DNA of 37,860 nt from an uncultured bacterium (GTDB lineage: Bacteria > Hydrogenedentota > Hydrogenedentia > Hydrogenedentales > JAEUWI01): positions 1 to 37,860 of the forward strand of contig CAXBPH010000033.1 in NCBI GenBank assembly GCA_963977445.1, written 5' to 3'. The translations under genes were made by a program, and so were the position numbers. Positions 7,508 to 30,477 of the stretch are shown piece by piece; positions within the stretch are counted from its first letter, which is position 1, and each line of letters begins with the position of its first letter. The notes beneath the pieces are model-generated. The model was not told the DNA's origin. It saw only the letters and a list, made by a program, of their open reading frames with translations, and made no database searches.

Positions 7508-7523
7508 TCGGACGGCACTCCCC

Positions 7524-7746
7524 CTAGGAGTCTGACTCCGAATCCCCGTGGCGCACGCGAAATCAGTTGCGAGCAGTGCGCGGAGCGACGAGGACGCAAT
7601 ATTGATATTGTTAGGAGGAGCGACAAAGCAATGCGACGCAAATGGTTTCGCCCGAAGGGTTTGTCCCCAGCACACCGTCTGCAACGCAGCAGACGGTGTG
7701 CTGGGGACAAACGTGCATCCGCGTGGATTCGGAGTCAGACTCCTAG
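7524..7746. mobile_element. MITE-like non-autonomous element with terminal inverted repeats bounded by CTAG
   Basis: Perfect 22-bp inverted repeat CTAGGAGTCTGACTCCGAATCC (7524-7545 / 7725-7746). Internal perfect 24-bp hairpin (7659-7682 / 7689-7712) and an imperfect stem (7557-7571 / 7637-7651). No transposase ORF. Confidence 0.75.
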
Positions 7747-8804
7747 CGGAGTGGTCCTTTGCCCCCACCGGTCGTCGCTTTTTGCGCCGCTTCCTGCTGG
7801 GCTTCCTTCAGTTTTTCAACGGTCTGTTGAATATCGCTTTGTTCTGAATTTGCCCGTAATGAAGACTCATAGCTCTTTTGTGCACTGGGGTAATCGCCCA
7901 ACTGCAATTGGAGGGCTCCCAGAAAATTCCAGATTGCGGTATCGTTCGGAGCAAGGGTTGTAGCGCGAGAAACCGCGAGTATTGCCTGGGGCAGCCGCGC
8001 CGCCGAATAGAGTAGTCGGGCGTAGGCGTAATGATTTTCTGCTGTATCCGAAAAGCTCTTCCGGTAGCCGTCAAAATCGTCCAGGGCGATACGAAGCTGA
8101 GCCCGAAGTTGGGTATCGTAGGGCTGGGCCGCCCGCCCAACCTCACTGAGTATGGTCCCCGCTTTGGCAACGTCACCGTCATACACGGCGACCACCAGCG
8201 CACCGAGTCGCGCACGGGTGTCGGTGGCATCAAGGGCCAGTGCCTCCGTAAAGGCCTTGCTGGCGGCTTCGGCCATTCCCGTGTCAAGATAATAGGAACC
8301 GAGCTCATTCCAGGTAGCCACGGCCCCGGGGGATTCCTTGTCCCGATCGAGTGACGTATACAACGCGTCGATACCTGCCTGGCGATCGGCTGCACCGGAA
8401 ACAAGCAGGCAGCTGCCATAGGAACGCCAGAGCGCCGCACTATCCAATCCCTGATCCAGAGCCTGACGGGCTACTTCCGCCCCGAGGTCATCGTCCCCTT
8501 TTTCCCGCAACACGGCAATATACCCGAGCGCAGAATCTTCGTCTCCCGTGCTACGAAAGGCGTCTGCATAGGCAGATTCCGCTTTCCTCAACGCCGATGT
8601 GGCCTCAATATCGAGGGTTTCGTAGGCCGTCATATCCTGCTGTGCCATAGCGGCAGTCTGTTTGGCCACCGTATCCTGAAAGTGTTTGAAGGCCTCGGCT
8701 CCGGGGCTTCCCGGATCTGCCCAGGCACCTGGAACGGCTGCAAGAAGCAGACAAAAGAGTACTACAGGACGGCTCAAACCGTTGGGGCGAAATCGGGGGA
8801 CCAC
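7743..8804 (-). CDS. Tetratricopeptide repeat protein with probable signal peptide
   Basis: Hydrophobic leader (VVLFCLLLAAVPGAWA) and several TPR-like units (ATWNELGSYYLDTGMAEAASKAFTEALALD; AIWNFLGALQLQLGDYPSAQKSYESSLRAN). GGAG precedes GTG 8804; overlaps the hflX end. Confidence 0.85.
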   Translation of the reverse strand: MVPRFRPNGLSRPVVLFCLLLAAVPGAWADPGSPGAEAFKHFQDTVAKQTAAMAQQDMTAYETLDIEATSALRKAESAYADAFRSTGDEDSALGYIAVLREKGDDDLGAEVARQALDQGLDSAALWRSYGSCLLVSGAADRQAGIDALYTSLDRDKESPGAVATWNELGSYYLDTGMAEAASKAFTEALALDATDTRARLGALVVAVYDGDVAKAGTILSEVGRAAQPYDTQLRAQLRIALDDFDGYRKSFSDTAENHYAYARLLYSAARLPQAILAVSRATTLAPNDTAIWNFLGALQLQLGDYPSAQKSYESSLRANSEQSDIQQTVEKLKEAQQEAAQKATTGGGKGPLR

Positions 8805-10549: not shown

Positions 10550-11527
10550 CTACTGGAACATCACGCGGCGAATAATCCGCTGTGATTCGGTCGCGTCCAG
10601 CGTCTTCTGGGCCTTACGAAGCTCGGTGGTATCGAGCTTTTCGAGCTTCTTGAAGAGCACATGGAGATTGCCAATAGCAATTTGCAGGGCGTGGGTCGGT
10701 TCGATGCGCTGGGGCAGCATATCGATCGTAAGGTAGCCCTTATACTTCGCCGTTTTCAGGTAGAACAAGGTCTCCATCGACTCCCAGAGATTGAGACTTC
10801 CGGGAATCATGGCATCGTCCCAAAGGCGATAACCGTCGCTGAAGTACATCTGAAAGAGTTTGCTTGACCGGGTGAGGAAGGCCACGGACTCTGCGGGATT
10901 TTCCCCAGACATCATGGCGTGGGAGAAGTTCATGGCTACACCCACGTTCTTCATGGCAATTTCCTGACACATGGAAAGGGCTTTGCCAACGGTGGCAACC
11001 GTAAGGTGCTTCCGAGGTTCGCGGGGCTTATACGCAATGGCGACGTTTACGTCGGGCGAAGCATACTTTGCGATGGTCTTGATGGAGGAAATGACCGTAT
11101 TCCAGTGGGCCGTATAGTCCACCTGGAAGGGATAATCGAAACCATCCGTGTTCAGGCGCAGGGTGATTTCTGTCGCACCGAGGGCACGGGCCAGATCAGC
11201 AGCCTTACGGCCTTCATCGATAGCGGCATTCCGGGTCTTCTGGTGCTGGTGCCCAAAACCTGCCAGTGAAAACTTACGGGAATGGCAAAGATTGGTGTTT
11301 ACACCGGAACAGGCCAGGCCATTGTCCTTCAGAAGCCGTTTCATGTCTTTGACGGGCAATTCAGAGGAAATATCGGTCTGGCTGACCTCTACTGCTTTCA
11401 AGAGCTTAATCTTTGCCGCAAGTGCAACTGCCTCGGTCACTTTGGGGACATCGCGATACCCTTCGACGCAATAGCGGTCCGGGTTGCTCGAAAAGACCCA
11501 AAGTCCCGTGGAAAATTTTGCGATCAT
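10550..11527 (-). CDS. Xylose isomerase-like TIM-barrel protein with degenerate metal site (possible pseudoenzyme)
   Basis: DGFDYPFQ.DY, YKPREPR, H....GENPAES and WDD.MIPG resemble the xylose isomerase-like family. AGGAG lies 6 nt before the ATG. Confidence 0.85.
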   Translation of the reverse strand: MIAKFSTGLWVFSSNPDRYCVEGYRDVPKVTEAVALAAKIKLLKAVEVSQTDISSELPVKDMKRLLKDNGLACSGVNTNLCHSRKFSLAGFGHQHQKTRNAAIDEGRKAADLARALGATEITLRLNTDGFDYPFQVDYTAHWNTVISSIKTIAKYASPDVNVAIAYKPREPRKHLTVATVGKALSMCQEIAMKNVGVAMNFSHAMMSGENPAESVAFLTRSSKLFQMYFSDGYRLWDDAMIPGSLNLWESMETLFYLKTAKYKGYLTIDMLPQRIEPTHALQIAIGNLHVLFKKLEKLDTTELRKAQKTLDATESQRIIRRVMFQ

Positions 11528-11709
11528 TATTGTCTCCTATTAAATACTATTGGCCCGTTTACGCTTTTAGGGCCGGATTGGAAATGCGTTCAATGCGTGG
11601 TATCTCTGGCCCCGCTGGTACGTCAGAACGCACCACGAACGTAAGAAATGGGGGAATCTGAGAGATCGCTGACCTGAAGGCATCAGGTAGCGGGCCATCC
11701 ATTGCGCGC

Positions 11710-11738
11710 ATTATATGCGATAACTACTGGGTTGTCAA
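11710..11738 (-). promoter_or_regulatory. Consensus sigma70-type promoter (TTGACA-17 bp-TATAAT) pointing toward the TIM-barrel gene
   Basis: Minus strand reads TTGACA acccagtagttatcgca TATAAT: an exact match to both hexamers with a 17-bp spacer. Confidence 0.85.
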
Positions 11739-11821: not shown

Positions 11822-11843
11822 TTATACCCGCCTGCGGGTATAA
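11822..11843. promoter_or_regulatory. Perfect 10-2-10 palindrome, possible operator
   Basis: TTATACCCGC-ct-GCGGGTATAA. Confidence 0.45.
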
Positions 11844-11965
11844 AAAAGAGGCGAGTGCAGGTAGCGGGGGAACTACCATGTTGCACTCGCCGATGGTGGG
11901 AACCAGTCATTGCTGACTGATAACGCCGGGGTGTCAGGGGGAATGACTCCATGCGGCGTCACCAT
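11842..11965 (-). ncRNA. Candidate small RNA with three stem-loops (two UUCCCCC loops, one GCAA tetraloop) ending in a terminator-like hairpin
   Basis: Stems at 11918-11964, 11904-11919 and 11850-11891, followed by TCTTTTTT. G-U pairs, the GNRA loop and the U-tail all favour the minus strand. The 5' end is uncertain (could extend to ~11992). Confidence 0.55.
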
Positions 11966-12149
11966 AGTAAACATGAGACCCGGGGGCTTTATTCCCGAAT
12001 TTTACCTGATAAATGGGAAGGCATGGATATAACTGTCTTCAATGCGGCTTCTACCCACCAAATCGGGCAATTTCACTGCGAAATTCCCGTATGACGTACG
12101 ATATTTTTTACCCTTGAACTTTCCCATCTGAATTTCGCATAGTGGTGTC

Positions 12150-13292
12150 ATGTCAATTTCAGCACCACAGCGGCAGTGGCTGACCCTGAAAATGATTCCG
12201 GGGGTCGGAACCACCCTATTCGTACGCCTTCTCTCCCGTTTTGGATCCCCACAGGACGTACTCAGCGCTTCGGAAAGCGCCCTTCGCGACGTGGTGGGCC
12301 CCAAACTCGCCGAGCGAATCCGCACCTACCAGCATATGGTCGATGTCGATCGCCAGATAGCCCTGCAGGAGGAATATGGTGCCCGTATTATCACGATGGA
12401 TGATACGGCCTATCCCCTGTCGCTGGCGGAGATTTATGACCCGCCCCTGGTTCTCTTTGCCCGCGGTCATGTGGCAGCGCCCGATGCACCCTGCGTCGCC
12501 CTTGTTGGAACCCGGAAGCCATCAACCTATGGTGTCCGAATGGCCCGAAGTCTGGCCTATGATCTCGCGTTGCGGGGCATAACCGTCGTCAGCGGCATGG
12601 CGGAAGGTATAGATACGGCGGCACACGAAGGAGCCCTCGAAGCCGGCGGTCACACCATTGCCGTCCTTGGCTGCGGCGTAGATGTGGTATATCCCCCACG
12701 TAATGCGGAATTAATGCATCGGATCATTGGACAAGGGGCCGTGTACTCGTGTTTCGAGATGGGTGTCAAACCTTCCAAAGGCCATTTCCCCTATCGCAAT
12801 CGCATCATCAGCGGATTGTCCATGGGCACGGTTGTCGTGGAAGCGCCCGTAGGCAGTGGCTCGCTTATCACAGCGCGCAACGCCGCAGAACAGGGCCGGG
12901 AAGTCTATGCCGTGCCGGGTGAAGCCGGTTCCTACAACAGCCGCGGCCCCCACGCCTTGCTCCGCGAAGGTGCCAAACTGGTCGAAAGTGCCGAAGATAT
13001 CATCGTAGAACTCAACATTGGCGCCGCCCATCGTCAGTCAGAAAAACTACAGACTGAATCAGGGGGCAAACAAGAGGTCCCATCATCGAACACTCAACCT
13101 GCGCGGCCCCGTCCCAACCTTTCCGCGACGGAAGAGGTTGTTCTCGATGTACTACACAGTGAGGGCTCCTTTGTGGATGAAATCGCCGCAGCAGGTCGGG
13201 TATCCGTATCGGAAGCGCTCAGCGCACTTACTATGCTGGAGCTCAAGGGGCTCGTTCAGCAATTCAGCGGCAAGCGCTTCGCCCGACGTTGA
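12150..13292 (+). CDS. dprA: DNA-processing protein DprA
   Basis: YP..L.EIYDPP..LF, VALVGTRK, VVSGMAEGIDTAAHEGAL, FPYRNRIISGLS, VVVEA...SGSLITA, GREVYAVPG, C-terminal winged helix. Confidence 0.96.
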   Translation: MSISAPQRQWLTLKMIPGVGTTLFVRLLSRFGSPQDVLSASESALRDVVGPKLAERIRTYQHMVDVDRQIALQEEYGARIITMDDTAYPLSLAEIYDPPLVLFARGHVAAPDAPCVALVGTRKPSTYGVRMARSLAYDLALRGITVVSGMAEGIDTAAHEGALEAGGHTIAVLGCGVDVVYPPRNAELMHRIIGQGAVYSCFEMGVKPSKGHFPYRNRIISGLSMGTVVVEAPVGSGSLITARNAAEQGREVYAVPGEAGSYNSRGPHALLREGAKLVESAEDIIVELNIGAAHRQSEKLQTESGGKQEVPSSNTQPARPRPNLSATEEVVLDVLHSEGSFVDEIAAAGRVSVSEALSALTMLELKGLVQQFSGKRFARR

Positions 13293-15735: not shown

Positions 15736-16584
15736 TTAGTCCCGAAACCACTGCGTGATGAGTGCTGCGGTTTCGGCCGGTTTCTCCTGGGGTATGAAAT
15801 GGCCTGCGCCCGCTACGGTTTCCACACAAACCTGCTGTAGTCGCTTTTCCTGCTCTGCGACCCAATTCTGGGCATAACTATCCTCACCCGTCACGAGGCA
15901 TGCGTTCAGTTCCAGTGCATCCAACGTGTCGTAGAGGTCACTGGCCCCGCCCAACTCGTAATACCAGGCCTCTCGGGTTCCCGGGCATTTCAGCTGGCAC
16001 GTGCCATCTTCCCCGACTTCCAAGGCATGGTCCAGATAGGCATCAATGGCCCGTTCTACCCAATTTGCCATGGGGGGCTTGGAGGCGAGTCGTTCCCGGG
16101 CGGCATCTTTAGACGCAAACTCATTTTTGCGATGAGCGACCATGGTCGCCAGGCGGTTCTCCCCCTCAAAGTAGGCCCGGTCGGCAATGATTGCGTCGAT
16201 AAGCATTACTTTCCCGAAGGTCTCCGGGCTCATCTGCGCGGCGTAGGCCACGTGGGCCCCACCTGCCGAGTGCCCCACGGCGGCTACCCCTGTGCCCAGG
16301 TTAAAGTGCTTCACGACGGCCAATAGATCTTTGCCGGAATAGTCCCAACGATACTGATCGCGAGTCGCAGGTGCCTCTGAATCACCCTGGCCCCGGGTGT
16401 CGGGAGCCAGTACTCGAAACTTGTCCTCGAGGGCCTCCACGACCGGATCCCAGATGCGACCGAGCGTACCCGTGCAGTGTGCCAGTATCAGGGGTACTCC
16501 CGGTCCGCCATAGTCCCAGACGTTCAGGGCAATGCCATTGTGTCCGGATACGGTGGTGGCGACGGGCTTACGACGGAGGGGCAT
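15736..16584 (-). CDS. Alpha/beta fold hydrolase
   Basis: D.RGQGDS, nucleophile motif GHSAGG, C-terminal AGHFIPQEKP. Confidence 0.9.
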   Translation of the reverse strand: MPLRRKPVATTVSGHNGIALNVWDYGGPGVPLILAHCTGTLGRIWDPVVEALEDKFRVLAPDTRGQGDSEAPATRDQYRWDYSGKDLLAVVKHFNLGTGVAAVGHSAGGAHVAYAAQMSPETFGKVMLIDAIIADRAYFEGENRLATMVAHRKNEFASKDAARERLASKPPMANWVERAIDAYLDHALEVGEDGTCQLKCPGTREAWYYELGGASDLYDTLDALELNACLVTGEDSYAQNWVAEQEKRLQQVCVETVAGAGHFIPQEKPAETAALITQWFRD

Positions 16585-16755: not shown

Positions 16756-18063
16756 TTACTCGTGTCGCAGGGCTTCCACGGGGTCCATCGTCGCGGCGCG
16801 TACTGCCGGATAGATTCCGAAGATTATCCCGACGATCCCCGAAATGGTAAAGGCCAGGATGGGGCCTTCAGGGGTGACAATCGTCTTCATCTCCGTAAAG
16901 GAGCCGATGGCAATGGGAATTACAATACCCACCGCGACCCCAAGGGCGCCGCCCGTGGCAGAGAGTAAAACCGTCTCAATCAGGAACTGGGTGATAATGT
17001 CCCGGTGTTTGGCACCCAGTGCACGACGGATACCGATTTCACGGGTACGTTCGGTTACACTGGCCAACATGATATTCATGATGCCAATGCCGCCAACCAG
17101 CAGTGAAATGGCCGCAATGGAGCCCAGAAGGATATTAAAGGTCCGCGCAGTTTCTTCCGCCGAGCGGAGCAGCTCCAAGGGAACCTCGAGTTCGAAATCC
17201 CGTTTCTTATGATTACGTGAAAGGATATCTTCGATGATGAGGGCGATCTCCTCGACCTCATCTTGATCTTCTACCTGAATAACAGCCTCGTGCAACTCAA
17301 CTTTTTCATTCTCGAAACTGCCACTGCTTTGTTTGCGCAGGACCTCTCCGAATCGTGCGCGGGCCGTGGTGAGGGGAATATACACCCGATCGAGATTGCT
17401 GCCTTCATCAGACGAACCTGGACGCCCGGACTCTACGTCGATGACGCCAATAACTTTATAATAGTCACTTTCGACCCGAATCCGTCGACCGATGGGGTTC
17501 GTCAGGGGAAAAAGCGCTGGTGCGATTGAGGCGCTCAACACGCAAACGTTTTCTTTTTCGTCACTCTCCAGCTCCGAAAAAAAACGCCCCTCCGCCAATT
17601 GCAGCTTTTTCATTTCTGGAAACCAAGGGACCGTTCCGATGATGTCGGCGTCCGCCCGCTGGGTCGCATTCCAGATACGTTTCCGCATAATTCGATTCGG
17701 CACCACAACCGTGACACCGGGTATCGTACCTCGGATACGTTCCAGATCGTCGTAGACCAGACCATATTCGATGACATAGGTCTGCTCCGCTGAATTACTC
17801 TGGGATTCCGGCGGTTTCACACTCCGTAGAATGATGTTATTGCTACCCAGTCTGCGAATCTGCTCCTGGGCCTCAAAACTTGCGCCTTCCCCAACGGCCA
17901 GCATGGCAATAACGGAACACACACCAAAAACGATGCCCAACACGGTAAGCAACGAACGGAGTCGATGGAGCCAGAGGCTCTTGAAGCCCAGAATTACGGT
18001 ACGGCGGAGTCGGGCGGGCGAAAGCGGGTTGGCGTTGCGACCTTGCAGTAATCGGCTATCCAT
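16756..18063 (-). CDS. MacB/FtsX-like ABC transporter permease
   Basis: RSLLTVLGIVFGV, ISLLVGGIGIMNIMLASVTERTREIGIRRALGA, GIYPA.RAA.MDPVEALRHE. Start overlaps the ATPase stop. Confidence 0.94.
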   Translation of the reverse strand: MDSRLLQGRNANPLSPARLRRTVILGFKSLWLHRLRSLLTVLGIVFGVCSVIAMLAVGEGASFEAQEQIRRLGSNNIILRSVKPPESQSNSAEQTYVIEYGLVYDDLERIRGTIPGVTVVVPNRIMRKRIWNATQRADADIIGTVPWFPEMKKLQLAEGRFFSELESDEKENVCVLSASIAPALFPLTNPIGRRIRVESDYYKVIGVIDVESGRPGSSDEGSNLDRVYIPLTTARARFGEVLRKQSSGSFENEKVELHEAVIQVEDQDEVEEIALIIEDILSRNHKKRDFELEVPLELLRSAEETARTFNILLGSIAAISLLVGGIGIMNIMLASVTERTREIGIRRALGAKHRDIITQFLIETVLLSATGGALGVAVGIVIPIAIGSFTEMKTIVTPEGPILAFTISGIVGIIFGIYPAVRAATMDPVEALRHE

Positions 18064-18754: not shown

Positions 18755-20553
18755 CAGGCGGCCTTTTCCTCCTTGGTGTTTTTATTAGCTTTGGCCGATT
18801 CTTCGGGCGCTTCCGGGGCAGCTTCCGGCAATTTGTTTTCTTCCTCATCACCACGATTGGCCGATGACGGTGCGCGAAGCGCTACCACGTCTCCAACGTC
18901 GATACCCGATTTAATCTCGATGAAGGTGGTGCTGAATGGCCCTACCTCGACAACACGTCGTTCCATGCCTTTGTCCGCGAGGTACACGGCCGTTTGGCCA
19001 TTTTCCTGGGAAACCGCCTGAAGCGGCACGAGCACCACATCTTTCACCGTCTCGATGATAATCTCACCTTCCGCGCTCATGCCCGGTTTCAGCCAGTCAT
19101 ACTGTCCTTCGATGAGGATGGATGTGGCGTATACTTTTAGATCGGGATTCATCCAGCGGTTCTGTGAGTCTGGGAGCACCCCAATTTTGAAGACCTCACC
19201 CTCTATCTGTAAATCAGGAAAGGCATCCACCCGAACGCGCGCGCGTTGCCCTTTCTCGATACGTTTCACAAAGGATTCATGAATCTTCACCTCAACCGTC
19301 ATCTGGGTCGTGTCGGGAATGGTGATGATAGACTGGCGTTCACGAATGGATGCACCCTCTTCAATACGGTCGTTATTTCGGTAGTAGTTCCGATTACCTT
19401 CACCATATATCACCAGCCCCGGCTTGGTCGCACGAATGATGCACTTTTCAATCTGTTCATTGAGCTCATCCCGATTCCGGCTCTGGAGCTCAAATCGTGC
19501 TTCCGCAGAGTTTAATTTGGCATCTGCCTGCGCCAGTTTCGACACGGCCAATTTTCGGGCACGTTGTAGTTTGCGGAGTGATTCTTCGTAATCGGAGAGC
19601 AATTTCTCGGCCTGTTTAGGAAACTCATATTTTACGTACAGATCAATATCCGTTTCGGCCGATGCCTTACTGATGGTCTTACGTTTCACGGCGAGTTCAT
19701 CGTTGTCTAACTCAATCTTGGTTACGAAATCTTTCGCGAAGAGCCGCTTTGTGCCATCCAGCTTGGACTCCGCCAACCCGACATCCTCCTGGGCCAAATC
19801 TACATCGTCATGGAGCTTCAGCAGCATTTGTCGTGCTTCACCATCGCCGAGTGACTCGGGGCGTGTATATTGGGAGAAATCGATATTCATGTCGGATTGC
19901 GAGTTACTCTCCAATTGTATTTTACCGGTCTCGGGATCCCGCGCCACGGCGGGCGAAACACTGGCAACCGCTTCGGGTGCAGGCTCGCGCTCACTGCCTG
20001 CCGCTTCAGCAAGCTGACTTTCGAGGAAACTTGTTTCCACCTTGGATGCCACTTCCGACGCCACGCCTTCACCGAGGAATTTTTTCAAATCCATAAGGGC
20101 AAATTTACTACCGAGTTCTGCCGCCTTGACGTCACTCAGGTTCTGGTTGATCTGGATTCCATATTCTTCCCGGGCTTCCGTAAAGCTGGCGAGTGAATTC
20201 TGGAATTGCAGCTCTTGCTCCGTCTGTCGGTCCAGCAGCTCCTTCGAGTCCAGTTCCACGAGAACCTTACCCTGCGCAACATCTTCCGCGGTTACGGTAT
20301 AGCCCTCTTCGACGATGGTCAGTATCTTTGTCTGCCCCTGAACCTCGGACTTGAGCTCTTGCGATTCTTTTGCCTCGACACTGCCCCCCTCCACCACCGT
20401 AATCTCCAGATCGCCCCGAATTGCGGCAAAGGTGGTGCCACGGCTCATTTGGGTCTCACCGTCCCCGCCGAAAATCAGATAGCCAGAAAACCCGACAAGG
20501 GCCAGAACAGCCACCACGAGATATCGACGCTTCATCTTTTTCTTGTCTGCCAT
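18754..20553 (-). CDS. Efflux periplasmic adaptor (MacA/HlyD family) with long coiled-coil
   Basis: N-terminal TM segment, lipoyl-like half domains (VEEG..V...GKVLVELD; IRATKPGLV), LKPGMSAEGEI, VLVPLQAV. AGGA precedes ATG 20553. Confidence 0.88.
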   Translation of the reverse strand: MADKKKMKRRYLVVAVLALVGFSGYLIFGGDGETQMSRGTTFAAIRGDLEITVVEGGSVEAKESQELKSEVQGQTKILTIVEEGYTVTAEDVAQGKVLVELDSKELLDRQTEQELQFQNSLASFTEAREEYGIQINQNLSDVKAAELGSKFALMDLKKFLGEGVASEVASKVETSFLESQLAEAAGSEREPAPEAVASVSPAVARDPETGKIQLESNSQSDMNIDFSQYTRPESLGDGEARQMLLKLHDDVDLAQEDVGLAESKLDGTKRLFAKDFVTKIELDNDELAVKRKTISKASAETDIDLYVKYEFPKQAEKLLSDYEESLRKLQRARKLAVSKLAQADAKLNSAEARFELQSRNRDELNEQIEKCIIRATKPGLVIYGEGNRNYYRNNDRIEEGASIRERQSIITIPDTTQMTVEVKIHESFVKRIEKGQRARVRVDAFPDLQIEGEVFKIGVLPDSQNRWMNPDLKVYATSILIEGQYDWLKPGMSAEGEIIIETVKDVVLVPLQAVSQENGQTAVYLADKGMERRVVEVGPFSTTFIEIKSGIDVGDVVALRAPSSANRGDEEENKLPEAAPEAPEESAKANKNTKEEKAA

Positions 20554-26142: not shown

Positions 26143-29142
26143 TCAGAGGGTTTTGGCTACACTTTCGATACGGTAGGTCTCAATAATATCGCCAATCTGA
26201 ATATCGTCGTAGCGTTCCAGCTTCAGACCACATTCAAAACCAGTCGAAACAGATTTGACCTCATCCTTATCGCGTCGCACCGTTGCAATCTTACCGGTGT
26301 AGACCACCACATCATCCCGAATCAACCGGGCCAGCGCGCCACGTTCAGTTTCACCGTCCTGCTGAATAGAACCGGCGATGTTACCCACCTTGGAAGACCG
26401 GAAGACCTGACGAATCTCGGCATGGCCAATAAGCACTTCCTTGGAATCGGGTGTCAACATACCTTCGAGGGCCAGGTGAACCTGGTCGATGGCTTCGTAG
26501 ATAATCAGATAGGTCCGTATATCGACGCCTTCTTCTTCCGCCATTGCTTTCACTTTTGTGGAAGCCGTAACGTGGAAGCCAATAATGACGGCGTTACTCG
26601 CACCCGCCAATAGCACGTCGGATTCGTTCACGCCACCTACACCAGAGTGTACGACGTTGATGGAAACTTCTTCATTACCAAGTTTGCCAAAACTGGAGAC
26701 CAGGACGTCAGCAGAACCCTGCGTATCGGCCTTGAGAATTACATTCAAGGTCTTCTGTTCAACACCTTCCATTAAGGCGTGGAAGTCTTCCAGGGTCATG
26801 TGTTTCGAGGCACCGGCACCACGCTTCTGGCGTTTCAACGCGCTACGTTTATCGGCAATGGTACGAGCGACGCGTTCTTCTTCAAGTACGTAGAACTGAT
26901 CGCCCGCTTCTGCCACCGCACTGAATCCGGTAACCAGTACCGGTGTCGATGGATCGGCCTCTTTGACCTGACGACCTTTGGAGTTGGTCATGGTCCGCAC
27001 CCGGCCATACGTTTCGCCGGAGAGGAATACATCGCCAACACGCAAGGTGCCGTTCTGCACCAAGACCCACGCAACGGGGCCGTGCCCCTTGGAAAGCTCT
27101 GCTTCCACAATGGTACCGCGGCCTTTTTTGTTTGGATTGGCTCTTAATTCGAGCATTTCGGACTCGAGGGCAAGCAATTCCATCAACTCATCGATGCCTT
27201 CACCGGAGTGAGCCGACACGTTCTTTATAACCGTGTCACCACCCCACTGCTCGTCCTGCAGGCCATAGTTGGCGAGCTCGGCACGAACACGATCGGGTTG
27301 GGCTTCGGGCTTATCGCATTTGTTGATAGCAACTACTATGCGCACTTCGGCGGCTTTGGCGTGATCAATGGCCTCAATGGTCTGAGGCTTGACACCGTCA
27401 TCGGCGGCAACCACAAGTACCACGACGTCAGTGACTTTGGCACCCCGTGAGCGCATCTGAGTGAACGCTTCGTGACCGGGCGTATCGAGGAACACGATTC
27501 GTCCGCCCGAAAGCTCTACATCGTAGGCGGCGATATGCTGGGTAATACCACCCGCTTCGCCGTCGGCAACATTGGCCTTGCGGACCACGTCAAGTAGCGA
27601 CGTCTTACCATGGTCAACGTGACCCATGATGGTAACAACCGGGGCGCGCAACACGAGATCCGCTGGATCGTCGGGCTCTTCGGCCAACACGGCGTCTTCT
27701 TCTGGAATAATGGACTGTACTTCAAAGTCTCGCTTCGCTGCGACACGACGAATAACGTCGATATCAAGACTCTGATTCTTGGTGACCATCATGTTGTCGT
27801 CCATGAGCTCAAGAATAAGGTCGGTCACGGAAACGGACATGGCTTCAGCAAGCTGTTCAACCGTCATGGAATCGTCCACTTCGATAGTACCGCCTGTTAT
27901 CTCCTCAACAATGGCCTCCACTTCAGTCTTGCTCTTCTTACGACGCTTCTTCGCGCCCATAGAACCTGCACCCGACTGAAATTCGCGCACCGCAGCGGCG
28001 GCATCACGACGAAGGTGACTCTCGATTACCCGAGCACGTTCAGCCCGTTTCGGCTTCTTGCGAACGACCTTGCCACCGGCCGCGACCGGTTTGCGTGGGG
28101 CATTACGAAACTGTTGCTCGCGCTTGCTCTCTTCTTCAATACTCGCGGCCGTACGTGGACGGGCCGGTGCGGCACCTGAGCCAGCGGGGCCACCACGGGC
28201 GCCACCTGGACCACCTCGGGCGGGCGCATTGCCACCTGGGCGCAGGCCCTGGCGTTTCTCGCGATCTCTACGAATAACTGCAGCAACCACGTCGGGATCG
28301 GGCGTGGGCAAGGGGCGTACCGGTGCCTTGGCACGGTCCTTTTCTTCCTTGTCCTGCAGGATCTCAGCCCGGGCGAGGCTGGTCTCATGGGCCGGCGTTT
28401 CGGAAGTGCGACGACCTCTATCGGATTCTGTAGTTTCCATATTGGGATCCACAGGTGGGAGAATTTCAGCAACAGGAGCCGCTGTGCTCTCTGCCGCAAC
28501 AGCGACAGGTTCAGCATCGGGCGTCTTGATGGACTCTACAGCCTTCTCTTCAGCAGCAGGCGTCTCGACAACCGCCACTTTAACAGCAGGCGCTTCCACG
28601 GCAGGCGTTTCAACGACTGCAGCTTCCACGGCAGGCGCTTCGACGACTGCAGCTTCCACGGCAGGCGCTTCGACGACCGCAGCTTTTTCTACCACCGGGT
28701 CTGGCTCGACTGCGGCGACTTCTTTTTCAGGTGCCACCTCAACAACAGGGGCAACCTCTGATTCTACTTCACCCGGCGCTTCTACTGAAGGGGGCTCTTC
28801 AACTGCGATCACGGCAACTTCCAACGTCTCAGCCTCATCCGTATTGGACGGAGCTTCGTCGGAATCGTTCGATTCTTTCGCAGCAGCAGCTTTCTTGCTG
28901 GGCGCCTTTTTCTTGGCGGCCTTCTGCAGGCGCTTTCGCTTTGCTTCGTCTTTCTTTTCTTTTTCTTGGAGGAACCCATCCAGGGAAGATGGATCTTCAT
29001 CAACATCTATGAGCATATCGCACTGGTCATCGTCAATATCGGTCTCGACGCCCTCAATATCGAAACCCAGTTGCCGCAGTGTTTCTACTGCTTCAACTGC
29101 ACTCATATCAAGACGTTTTGCCAAGCTGGCAACTGTCTGCAT
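26143..29142 (-). CDS. infB: Translation initiation factor IF-2
   Basis: [44 protein letters not shown]; long low-complexity N-terminal region. Confidence 0.98.
28556..28685. repeat. In-frame 30-bp tandem repeat inside infB ([10 protein letters not shown] units)
   Basis: Three near-identical copies at 28592-28621, 28622-28651 and 28652-28681, plus degenerate units from 28556. Confidence 0.9.
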
Positions 29143-29244: not shown

Positions 29245-30477
29245 CTACTTCGGCACAGCATCCCCTGCGGCATCATCGCTTTCAGCGGAGTCTTCGCCTT
29301 CAACGGCATCATCGCTTTCAACGGAGTCTGTCACACCGTCTTCAGCAGGAACTTCCGCACGTTCAACGGAGTCTGTCACACCGTCTTCAGCAGGAGCTTC
29401 CGCGCTTTCACCTGTATCTTCAAACAAGGCATCGTCTTCATCTTCTTCTTGTCCAACTTCGCCTTGAATATCTATGTTCCACCCGATAAGCTTTGACGCC
29501 AAGCGAGCATTCTGTCCGCGCTTACCAATGGCAAGGGACAATTGATCCTGGGGAACTATGACCCGGATATTGCCTTGTTCCTCGTCCATCTGAATTTGCA
29601 GTATGTCCGCAGGATTGAGTGCATTGGCACACAACTCGGTCGCCTGCTCGCTCCAGCGCACGATATCTATCTTCTCACCCGACAACTCCTCCACCACCGA
29701 GCGGACCCGGGCACCCTTCATTCCGACACAGGCGCCAACGGGATCTACGTTTACGTCGTTGGACTTTACGGCCACTTTGGTTCGGCTACCCGCTTCACGG
29801 GCAATGGCCTTAATCTCTATAGTCTCGTCGTACAACTCGGGCACTTCAAGCTCAAAAAGACTTCGGACCAGCTCGGGTGACGAGCGCGAAAGTATAACCT
29901 GCGCACCTTTGGGAGATTTTTCAACCTCAACCAGAATGGCCCGAATACGGTCGCCGGGACGATATGTCTCCCTGGGAGACTGCTCGCGGTAGGGAATCAG
30001 TGCTTCAGCCTTACCAATCGAAACTATAATATTACCATGACTGATACGCTTTACGCTGCCTGTAATTAACTCGCCTTCACGCTGCTTAAATTCGTCGAAT
30101 ATATTATCGCGTTCAGCGTCTTTAATCTTTTGTATGATTACCTGCTTGGCAGTCTGAGCCGCAATCCGCCCGAAATCCTGGGGGTGGGTCTGAATCTTCA
30201 AGCGGTTACCCACGACCACAGCCGAATTCAATTCGGCAGCCGCTTCGAGCGTTATCTCGGTGGACGTATCTTCGACCGTATCCATGACCGTGCGAATCTC
30301 AAAAACCTTGAACGCGAGTGTCTCGGGATCAACTTCTACCGTAATATTACTGGCATTGTCCGCTTCTTTTCGCGCAGCACTCTCTATAGCGCTACGAATA
30401 GCTTCGATGAGTGTCTCTCTATCGATGCTCTTATCTGCTTCTATTTGTTGTAATATTATACGTAAATTTGGATCCAA
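29245..30477 (-). CDS. nusA: Transcription termination/antitermination factor NusA
   Basis: DFGRIAAQTAKQVI.QKI, LF.LEVPE, AREAGSRTKVAV, DPVGACVGMKG.RV, LSLAIGKRGQNARLA.KL.GW.IDI. Confidence 0.98.
   Translation of the reverse strand: MDPNLRIILQQIEADKSIDRETLIEAIRSAIESAARKEADNASNITVEVDPETLAFKVFEIRTVMDTVEDTSTEITLEAAAELNSAVVVGNRLKIQTHPQDFGRIAAQTAKQVIIQKIKDAERDNIFDEFKQREGELITGSVKRISHGNIIVSIGKAEALIPYREQSPRETYRPGDRIRAILVEVEKSPKGAQVILSRSSPELVRSLFELEVPELYDETIEIKAIAREAGSRTKVAVKSNDVNVDPVGACVGMKGARVRSVVEELSGEKIDIVRWSEQATELCANALNPADILQIQMDEEQGNIRVIVPQDQLSLAIGKRGQNARLASKLIGWNIDIQGEVGQEEDEDDALFEDTGESAEAPAEDGVTDSVERAEVPAEDGVTDSVESDDAVEGEDSAESDDAAGDAVPK
29268..29403. repeat. Overlapping in-frame duplications (45-bp and 36-bp periods) in the nusA 3' end
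   Basis: TTCAACGGAGTCTGTCACACCGTCTTCAGCAGGA at 29317 and 29362; CGGCATCATCGCTTTCARCGGAGTCT at 29268 and 29304. Confidence 0.88.

Follow-up and report, generated by a model that had tools for sequence, protein, structure and literature searches.

The window considered here, the whole stretch of 37,860 nucleotides that was analysed, contains a 622-bp gap between dprA and a divergent isomerase-like gene, with hflX and lpxK flanking this pair and the remaining genes of the window being housekeeping genes. The question raised by this gap is what it encodes: an RNA gene in its own right, a leader of the gene downstream, a DNA element or a small protein. On the minus strand, positions 11965-11842 read as three hairpins followed by a U tail (Table 1), just as a preliminary description of this DNA, made from the sequence alone, had set them out. 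The reading favoured here, with moderate confidence and from comparison of related sequences, is that of an independent sRNA gene of ~123 nt, carried by part of the Hydrogenedentota, which would be induced by an ECF sigma factor and would act in trans through C-rich seeds.

Table 1. Parts of the element, its putative promoter and the neighbouring genes, in window positions.
Feature	Position	Strand	Remarks
Stem-loop P1	11920..11962	-	Stem sequence variable; 7-nt apical loop UUCCCCC at 11943-11937
Stem-loop P2	11904..11919	-	CAGUCA/UGACUG; GCAA tetraloop at 11913-11910
Single-stranded linker	11892..11903	-	Second C-rich motif, UUCCCACCA; nearly invariant across 16 sequences
Stem-loop P3	11850..11891	-	10-bp outer stem almost invariant; 4-5 bp inner stem covaries; loop UUCCCCCG at 11872-11865
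U-rich terminator tail, UCUUUUUU	11842..11849	-	T-rich run after P3 in 16/16 aligned sequences
Predicted transcript, ~123 nt	11842..11964	-	Covariance model match 11839-11971, 133.8 bits
Putative ECF-type promoter	11970..11995	-	-35 core GGAAT at 11995-11991; -10 core GTT at 11972-11970; 18-nt non-conserved spacer; A/T-rich tract upstream
Xylose-isomerase-like TIM-barrel gene	10550-11527	-	Pfam AP_endonuc_2; nearest solved relative 3ktc, E 1e-51
dprA	12150-13292	+	

The minimum-energy fold of the minus strand is -56.5 kcal/mol, compared with a shuffle mean of -31.4 kcal/mol (z = -7.80), and none of 200 shuffles folded as well, whereas the fold of the plus strand is less exceptional (z = -5.22). 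Stems 1 and 2 as they were first drawn are both present, but the last two bases of stem 1 are also the first two of stem 2, and therefore the two cannot both form fully; as conservation favours stem 2, P1 ends at 11920. P3 is the stem of an intrinsic terminator, and the other strand has no T run corresponding to the tail. Stem 3 and the U tail are missing from the list that a simple terminator scan returned for the window, because an internal loop in stem 3 breaks the rule of the scan. In the window, matches to the heptamer TTCCCCC are no more frequent than expected (6 vs 8.6), and on the window alone the case would rest on fold energy; the element stands above chance because it is conserved and covarying in related genomes. 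A second small hairpin lies directly 3' of the U tail (window 11825-11840, minus strand), and in one group of relatives (loci L003, L004 and L071) a second terminator-like hairpin with a T run is found just after the RNA; such hairpins just past the tail may be tandem terminators.

Related genomes were reached through the neighbouring gene. Those DprA relatives that bear a name are assigned to Candidatus Hydrogenedentes/Hydrogenedentota. Of at least 120 DprA relatives 47 were aligned, and the alignment was used for a profile search of genome contigs. This confirmed 108 of 122 candidate stretches, and of these loci the best 80 were kept (1.15 Mb). Some of these are labelled Nitrospirales or Bathyarchaeia, and were taken as Hydrogenedentota-like on DprA similarity only. 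With the RNA of the window as query, blastn and nhmmer found it in 15 of the 80 dprA-anchored loci, and a covariance model built from 16 sequences found a single copy each in 17 of the 80, plus the window, with scores of 96-143 bits for 16 matches and of 36 and 24 bits for those in L046 and L050, respectively. With filters off, a marginal eighteenth related-locus copy was seen in L045 (13 bits, E 0.076), no copy was detected in L047, L052 or L063, and there was no second copy in the window. Among the 56 loci that extend 3 kb or more upstream of dprA, 16 have the RNA, as does one of the 24 shorter loci, and the model did not detect it in 3 of the 17 loci that retain the isomerase gene. Its core of ~80 nt is 84-94% identical where DprA is only 52-62% identical to that of the window. 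On the concern that the sequence might prove to be a dispersed multicopy repeat, there is one copy in the 37.9-kb window and one per related locus in 1.15 Mb; searches of plasmid and phage collections gave no match to the RNA.

A shorter, two-hairpin variant that lacks P2 occurs in L045 (3923-4073), L046 (8603-8716) and L050 (8499-8622), on the minus strand in each; promoter box and terminator are retained in it, as are a C-rich loop and a C-rich linker. L074 has, at ~19717-19890 on the plus strand and ~8.5 kb downstream of dprA, a GGAAT-N19-GTT box with a hairpin after it whose loop is C-rich; this might be a distant relative or chance. A heuristic scan for a box, a C-rich motif and a terminator recovered 9 of the 18 known copies and was for that reason too strict; beyond these it gave one unrelated site in a copy-bearing locus and unconvincing sites in L027 and L074.

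The stems of the preliminary description are borne out by these homologues near dprA. The full-length homologues are 115-128 nt long and show the same three-hairpin shape in 16 of 16 predicted folds. Over 26 pairs and 16 sequences, 95.3% of cells pair, compared with 28-35% when the partners are slid by 1-3 columns, a level that none of 500 shuffles attained. The number of pairs changed on both sides is 11 of 26, vs 3-4 for slid partners (reached by 2 of 500 shuffles), and the covariation score is 0.285 vs 0.04-0.09 (reached by none of 500). Double changes are seen in all four pairs of the inner P3 helix and in 6 of the 7 inner pairs of P1. In P2, 100% of cells pair across the 16 sequences, and in the outer P3 helix 99.4%, yet 5 of the 6 pairs of P2 and 8 of the 10 of outer P3 never vary, and these invariant pairs therefore speak neither for nor against those helices. 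Where these stems do vary, the changes are compensatory: P2 of L070 has a U-A to C-G change, together with a UUCG loop in place of the GNRA (GCAA) loop, and the outer P3 stem shows changes of this kind in L046 and L050. The outer part of P1 is not countable by column, because its internal loops vary in size and MAFFT loses register; the register was held for the inner seven pairs only, and folds of each sequence were used instead. Folded alone, P1 of each of the 16 sequences forms a hairpin of 31-44 nt whose apical loop carries the C-rich heptamer, with z-scores of -2.1 to -7.8 that are flattered by P1 boundaries having come from the folds themselves. As judged from the alignment, the three-hairpin fold is maintained through compensatory changes.

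Three C-rich motifs are nearly invariant within this fold, YUCCCCC in loop 1, UUCCCACCA in the linker and UUCCCCCG in loop 3. Their mean predicted unpaired probability across the 16 homologues is 0.98 for loop 1, 0.81 for the linker and 0.83 for loop 3, with a minimum of 0.41 for the linker.

The paired columns contain 17 G-U cells vs 4 A-C cells, an excess that indicates the minus strand and sustains the earlier strand assignment, as do the promoter box and the T tail, which fit this strand only. This bears on whether the conserved object might instead be the plus strand or the DNA itself, in the form of CsrA-like GGA hairpins with GGGGGAA loops, a protein-binding palindrome, or a repeat or mobile remnant. 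The plus strand also folds well (z -5.2) and its loops do contain GGA, but the G-U excess and the orientation of box and tail argue against it, and the single copy per locus and in the window, with no plasmid or phage match, argues against a repeat or mobile element, making such readings highly improbable. A small protein is harder still to credit. A frame of 30 codons from an AUG at 11965 is open in the window, L001 and L002, but the remaining 15 of the 18 copies lack this frame or have it shifted, and no Shine-Dalgarno sequence precedes the AUG; conservation, moreover, peaks at positions that keep pairing, and the stem changes are compensatory.

Upstream of the RNA, GGAAT-N18/19-GT(T/C) is found in all 18 copies, of which 12 have an 18-nt and 6 a 19-nt spacer, with GTT in 17 and GTC in one. 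The box ends 6-12 nt before P1, its spacer varies freely, and most copies have an A/T-rich tract upstream. GGAAT-N18-19-GTT is described as the consensus of SigH-dependent ECF promoters in Corynebacterium glutamicum, and as related to those of mycobacterial SigH/SigE and Streptomyces SigR (PMC10012870). The box of the RNA matches the SigH consensus letter for letter, this being an 8-base motif known from Actinobacteria. Taken by itself, the box is no commoner in the window than expected (3 matches vs 2.9), and of 49 strict matches in the 1.15 Mb, 17 are the RNA's own and ~32 are not; with the box at chance frequency elsewhere, the promoter argument rests on its invariance and its fixed position at orthologous sites. 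On these grounds, the GGAAT-N18/19-GTT box is likely a promoter for a SigH/SigR-type sigma factor of the ECF class (group 4). The -10 hexamer that had been suggested before, TAAAAT at 11999-12004, is present, but it is located upstream of the conserved box and the 17 other copies do not share it, and so it does not stand. With the transcript start placed 6-8 nt past the -10 core and the end placed by the U tail, the conserved box as likely promoter gives an RNA of ~123 nt, at the short end of the ~125-150 nt first claimed.

No ECF sigma gene with sigma-70 domains was found behind a box among the 25 of 40 downstream ORFs that were run on Pfam. The box does, however, occur at other genes. It lies 74-160 nt upstream of a disulphide-isomerase-family gene (PF06491) in both of the two loci that carry this gene (L001, ~16790-16815; L038, ~15907-15970), making the gene a candidate to share a sigma regulon with the RNA as its second member, although one recognised post hoc and from two loci. 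The same box is found 37-38 nt upstream of a conserved CBS-domain gene in L027 (9271-9296) and L037 (1907-1932), two loci without the RNA in which the CBS-domain gene adjoins dprA. Taken post hoc, the boxes at the PF06491 and CBS-domain genes are compatible with a regulon.

The position of the RNA allows for a second reading, in which it would be a cis-acting leader or attenuator of the isomerase-like gene, such as a terminator-bearing riboswitch. In the window and in 13 of the 17 loci that carry the RNA, this gene comes next downstream on the same strand, 185-390 nt away, and it is highly conserved (64-94% identity). Against this, a near-consensus sigma-70 promoter (TTGAC-N16-18-TAnnnT) intervenes between the terminator of the RNA and the isomerase-like gene in 18 of 18 sequences having the gene, in the window as a perfect TTGACA-17-TATAAT at 11738-11710 on the minus strand, leaving the gene with a leader of 150-276 nt in all 18. 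The class of the downstream gene is not constant either, being an APS kinase gene in L005 and a URO-D-like gene in L031 (the sequences of L053 and L014 end too near the RNA to show a downstream gene), and in three loci that have the isomerase-like gene no RNA was detected. No conserved antiterminator that would compete with the invariant and very stable terminator stem was seen. In the fold of the window, the 5' end pairs with the linker and so closes a three-way junction, but this pairing is not predicted in most homologues. A leader function is thus very unlikely, and a riboswitch or other cis leader was rejected as a class for this element. The intervening sigma-70 promoter and the two loci with another gene lead to the conclusion that the RNA is, as read from these loci, a separate unit, often but not always beside the isomerase-like gene. 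The stand-alone RNA gene proposed in the preliminary description accordingly holds up, with one copy, covarying stems and a downstream gene that has a promoter of its own.

The leader of the isomerase-like gene itself (window 11525-11738, minus strand) is conserved within subgroups only, and a conserved AACCTA precedes its sigma-70 promoter in many copies. This leader might be a cis-regulatory RNA of its own; that of the window folds no better than shuffles (z -1.6). It contains a third UUCCCCC at 11650-11656 (minus strand), and a similar UCCCC occurs at the same position only in the closest relatives, L001-L004 and L071.

The Rfam 15 search of the whole window gave no match at gathering score to any family, RsaE, cuckoo, MicA, RybB, 6S, SRP and tmRNA among them. 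At E <= 10, three copies (those of the window, L004 and L019) gave weak and unrelated matches that differed per copy, the best with 17 bits vs a threshold of 50, so that no family reaches even a weak recurring score, in line with the earlier failure to recognise a known family. Literature pairing the name of the phylum with 'sRNA' or 'structured RNA' yielded no regulatory RNA for Hydrogenedentota.

Elsewhere in the window, a nested palindrome without an Rfam match lies at 7521-7749, between convergent lipB-like and TPR genes, with 31-nt outer arms (90% complementary, 167 nt apart) around a perfect 24-nt hairpin at 7659-7712; the palindrome may serve as a bidirectional terminator, or it may be a repeat element. 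Tandem 15-nt direct repeats occur at 28535-28699 (minus strand) within the IF-2 gene (26143-29142), and tandem 36/45-nt direct repeats at 29268-29406 (minus strand) within nusA (29245-30477).

Three groups of known sRNAs offer comparison. In RsaE, C-rich motifs meet G-rich sites, whilst sRNAs of the MicA/RybB type carry their seeds at the 5' end and need Hfq. The Hydrogenedentota RNA resembles RsaE/RoxS in being a short sRNA with an intrinsic terminator and several unpaired C-rich motifs, conserved across a wide taxon; where at least two single-stranded C-rich motifs mark RNAs of that kind, three are predicted here. According to published descriptions, RsaE is conserved in the Firmicutes and interacts with its targets directly (PMC6158497, PMC4409812), and RoxS is regulated by nitric oxide (PMC4409812). 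The Hydrogenedentota RNA differs from these in belonging to another phylum, in the lack of an Rfam match at E <= 10 for the three copies, in its ECF-type box as opposed to the promoter under nitric-oxide regulation described for RoxS, and in its motif, which is longer (UUCCCCC) and placed on two hairpin loops and the linker.

The second comparison is with MicA, RybB, MicL and MicV of Enterobacteria and Vibrio, which are described as the non-coding arm of the sigmaE ECF regulon (PMC4102768, PMC6694218). An ECF-type promoter of its own, putative here, and a Rho-independent terminator are shared with these; P3 with its U tail is found in 16 of 16 sequences, and the promoter that belongs to the neighbouring gene in 18 of 18. 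The box is, however, GGAAT/GTT and SigH-like, going by the consensus described for C. glutamicum (PMC10012870), and not of the enterobacterial sigmaE type, and by Rfam there is no sequence similarity to MicA, RybB, MicL or MicV. The third comparison is with the CcsR ('cuckoo') RNAs of Rhodobacter and other Alphaproteobacteria, which have been linked to RpoHI/RpoHII and of which CcsR1-4 are described as tandem repeated hairpin units beside a DUF1127 gene (PMC8034643). These likewise show a C-rich loop motif on hairpins, and the control by a stress sigma factor ascribed to CcsR is presumed for the Hydrogenedentota RNA, but the latter is a single gene with three different hairpins, with no DUF1127 gene nearby and no Rfam match. 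By analogy, the closest systems would be RsaE/RoxS in design, the sigmaE sRNAs in presumed control and CcsR/cuckoo in loop display. As there is no Rfam score, and phylum, promoter and architecture differ, the RNA belongs to none of the three; it is a new sRNA family, of a known kind of regulator.

As far as its sequence and predicted fold allow, the Hydrogenedentota RNA is probably a stress-induced regulator of the translation of other genes. Stress, possibly thiol-oxidative or heat, would free an ECF sigma factor of the SigH/SigR kind, and the RNA would then be transcribed from the GGAAT-N18/19-GTT box; it is because the box is read as an ECF sigma promoter that the RNA is expected under stress. 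The exposed C-rich motifs would pair in trans with G-rich stretches in or near the ribosome-binding sites of targets, blocking translation or altering mRNA stability, and within the regulon of that sigma factor the RNA would be the non-coding arm.

Target predictions covered the neighbourhood of the RNA. At the translation starts of the 30 genes of the window, the best duplexes (-20.5, -20.0 and -19.1 kcal/mol) fall within the 1-5% random tail of 90 tests. A scan of whole-length duplexes for six neighbour genes across loci gave means equal to background, and is uninformative because internal structure is ignored and the means equal background. Seed complementarity in the leader of the isomerase-like gene, followed through 12 loci, gave empirical p values mostly above 0.1, with the two low values (0.01 and 0.04) falling at different sites of the leader. 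The motif CCCCC is no complement of the canonical GGAGG Shine-Dalgarno sequence.

These results bear on a further possibility, that of a protein-titrating sponge. In CsrB/RsmZ, GGA loops sequester CsrA, and here three C-rich motifs on a rigid, invariant scaffold would sequester an RNA-binding protein with a preference for single-stranded C-rich RNA. That one motif is exposed in three copies (predicted), and that no mRNA target was found among the 30 genes of the window or in the isomerase leader of 12 loci, would agree with a sponge. P2, the linker and outer P3 are, in addition, almost invariant while DprA drops to 52-62% identity, and for P2 and the outer P3 stem such constancy goes beyond the needs of seed pairing, so that these stems may point to a protein partner. 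However, the 18 loci show no candidate protein linked to the RNA, its neighbours being housekeeping genes, and P2 is lost from the two-hairpin variant whereas the C-rich motifs are kept, from which it follows that the scaffold is not strictly required. Known sRNAs with C-rich motifs, such as RsaE/RoxS, are moreover described as base-pairing (PMC6158497, PMC4409812). A sponge is consequently rather unlikely. Its wider form, a hub of a phylum-wide stress circuit in which an ECF-induced scaffold RNA would titrate a protein by three C-rich displays, with or without mRNA pairing, is given slightly less credence again; if true, it would amount to a CsrB-like sponge in which both the motif and the protein differ, found in a phylum without a cultured model.

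Returning to the favoured reading, that of an independent trans-acting sRNA, the RNA provides an independent example of repeated C-rich loop motifs on an sRNA, which are otherwise known from Firmicutes and Alphaproteobacteria, and the occurrence of such motifs in separate phyla suggests that the design arises repeatedly. The putative promoter box offers a handle on an ECF sigma regulon in Hydrogenedentota genomes. For the Hydrogenedentota, which are without a genetic model, the finding adds an RNA family that its covariance model, covarying structure and conserved promoter box make ready for the RNA family databases.
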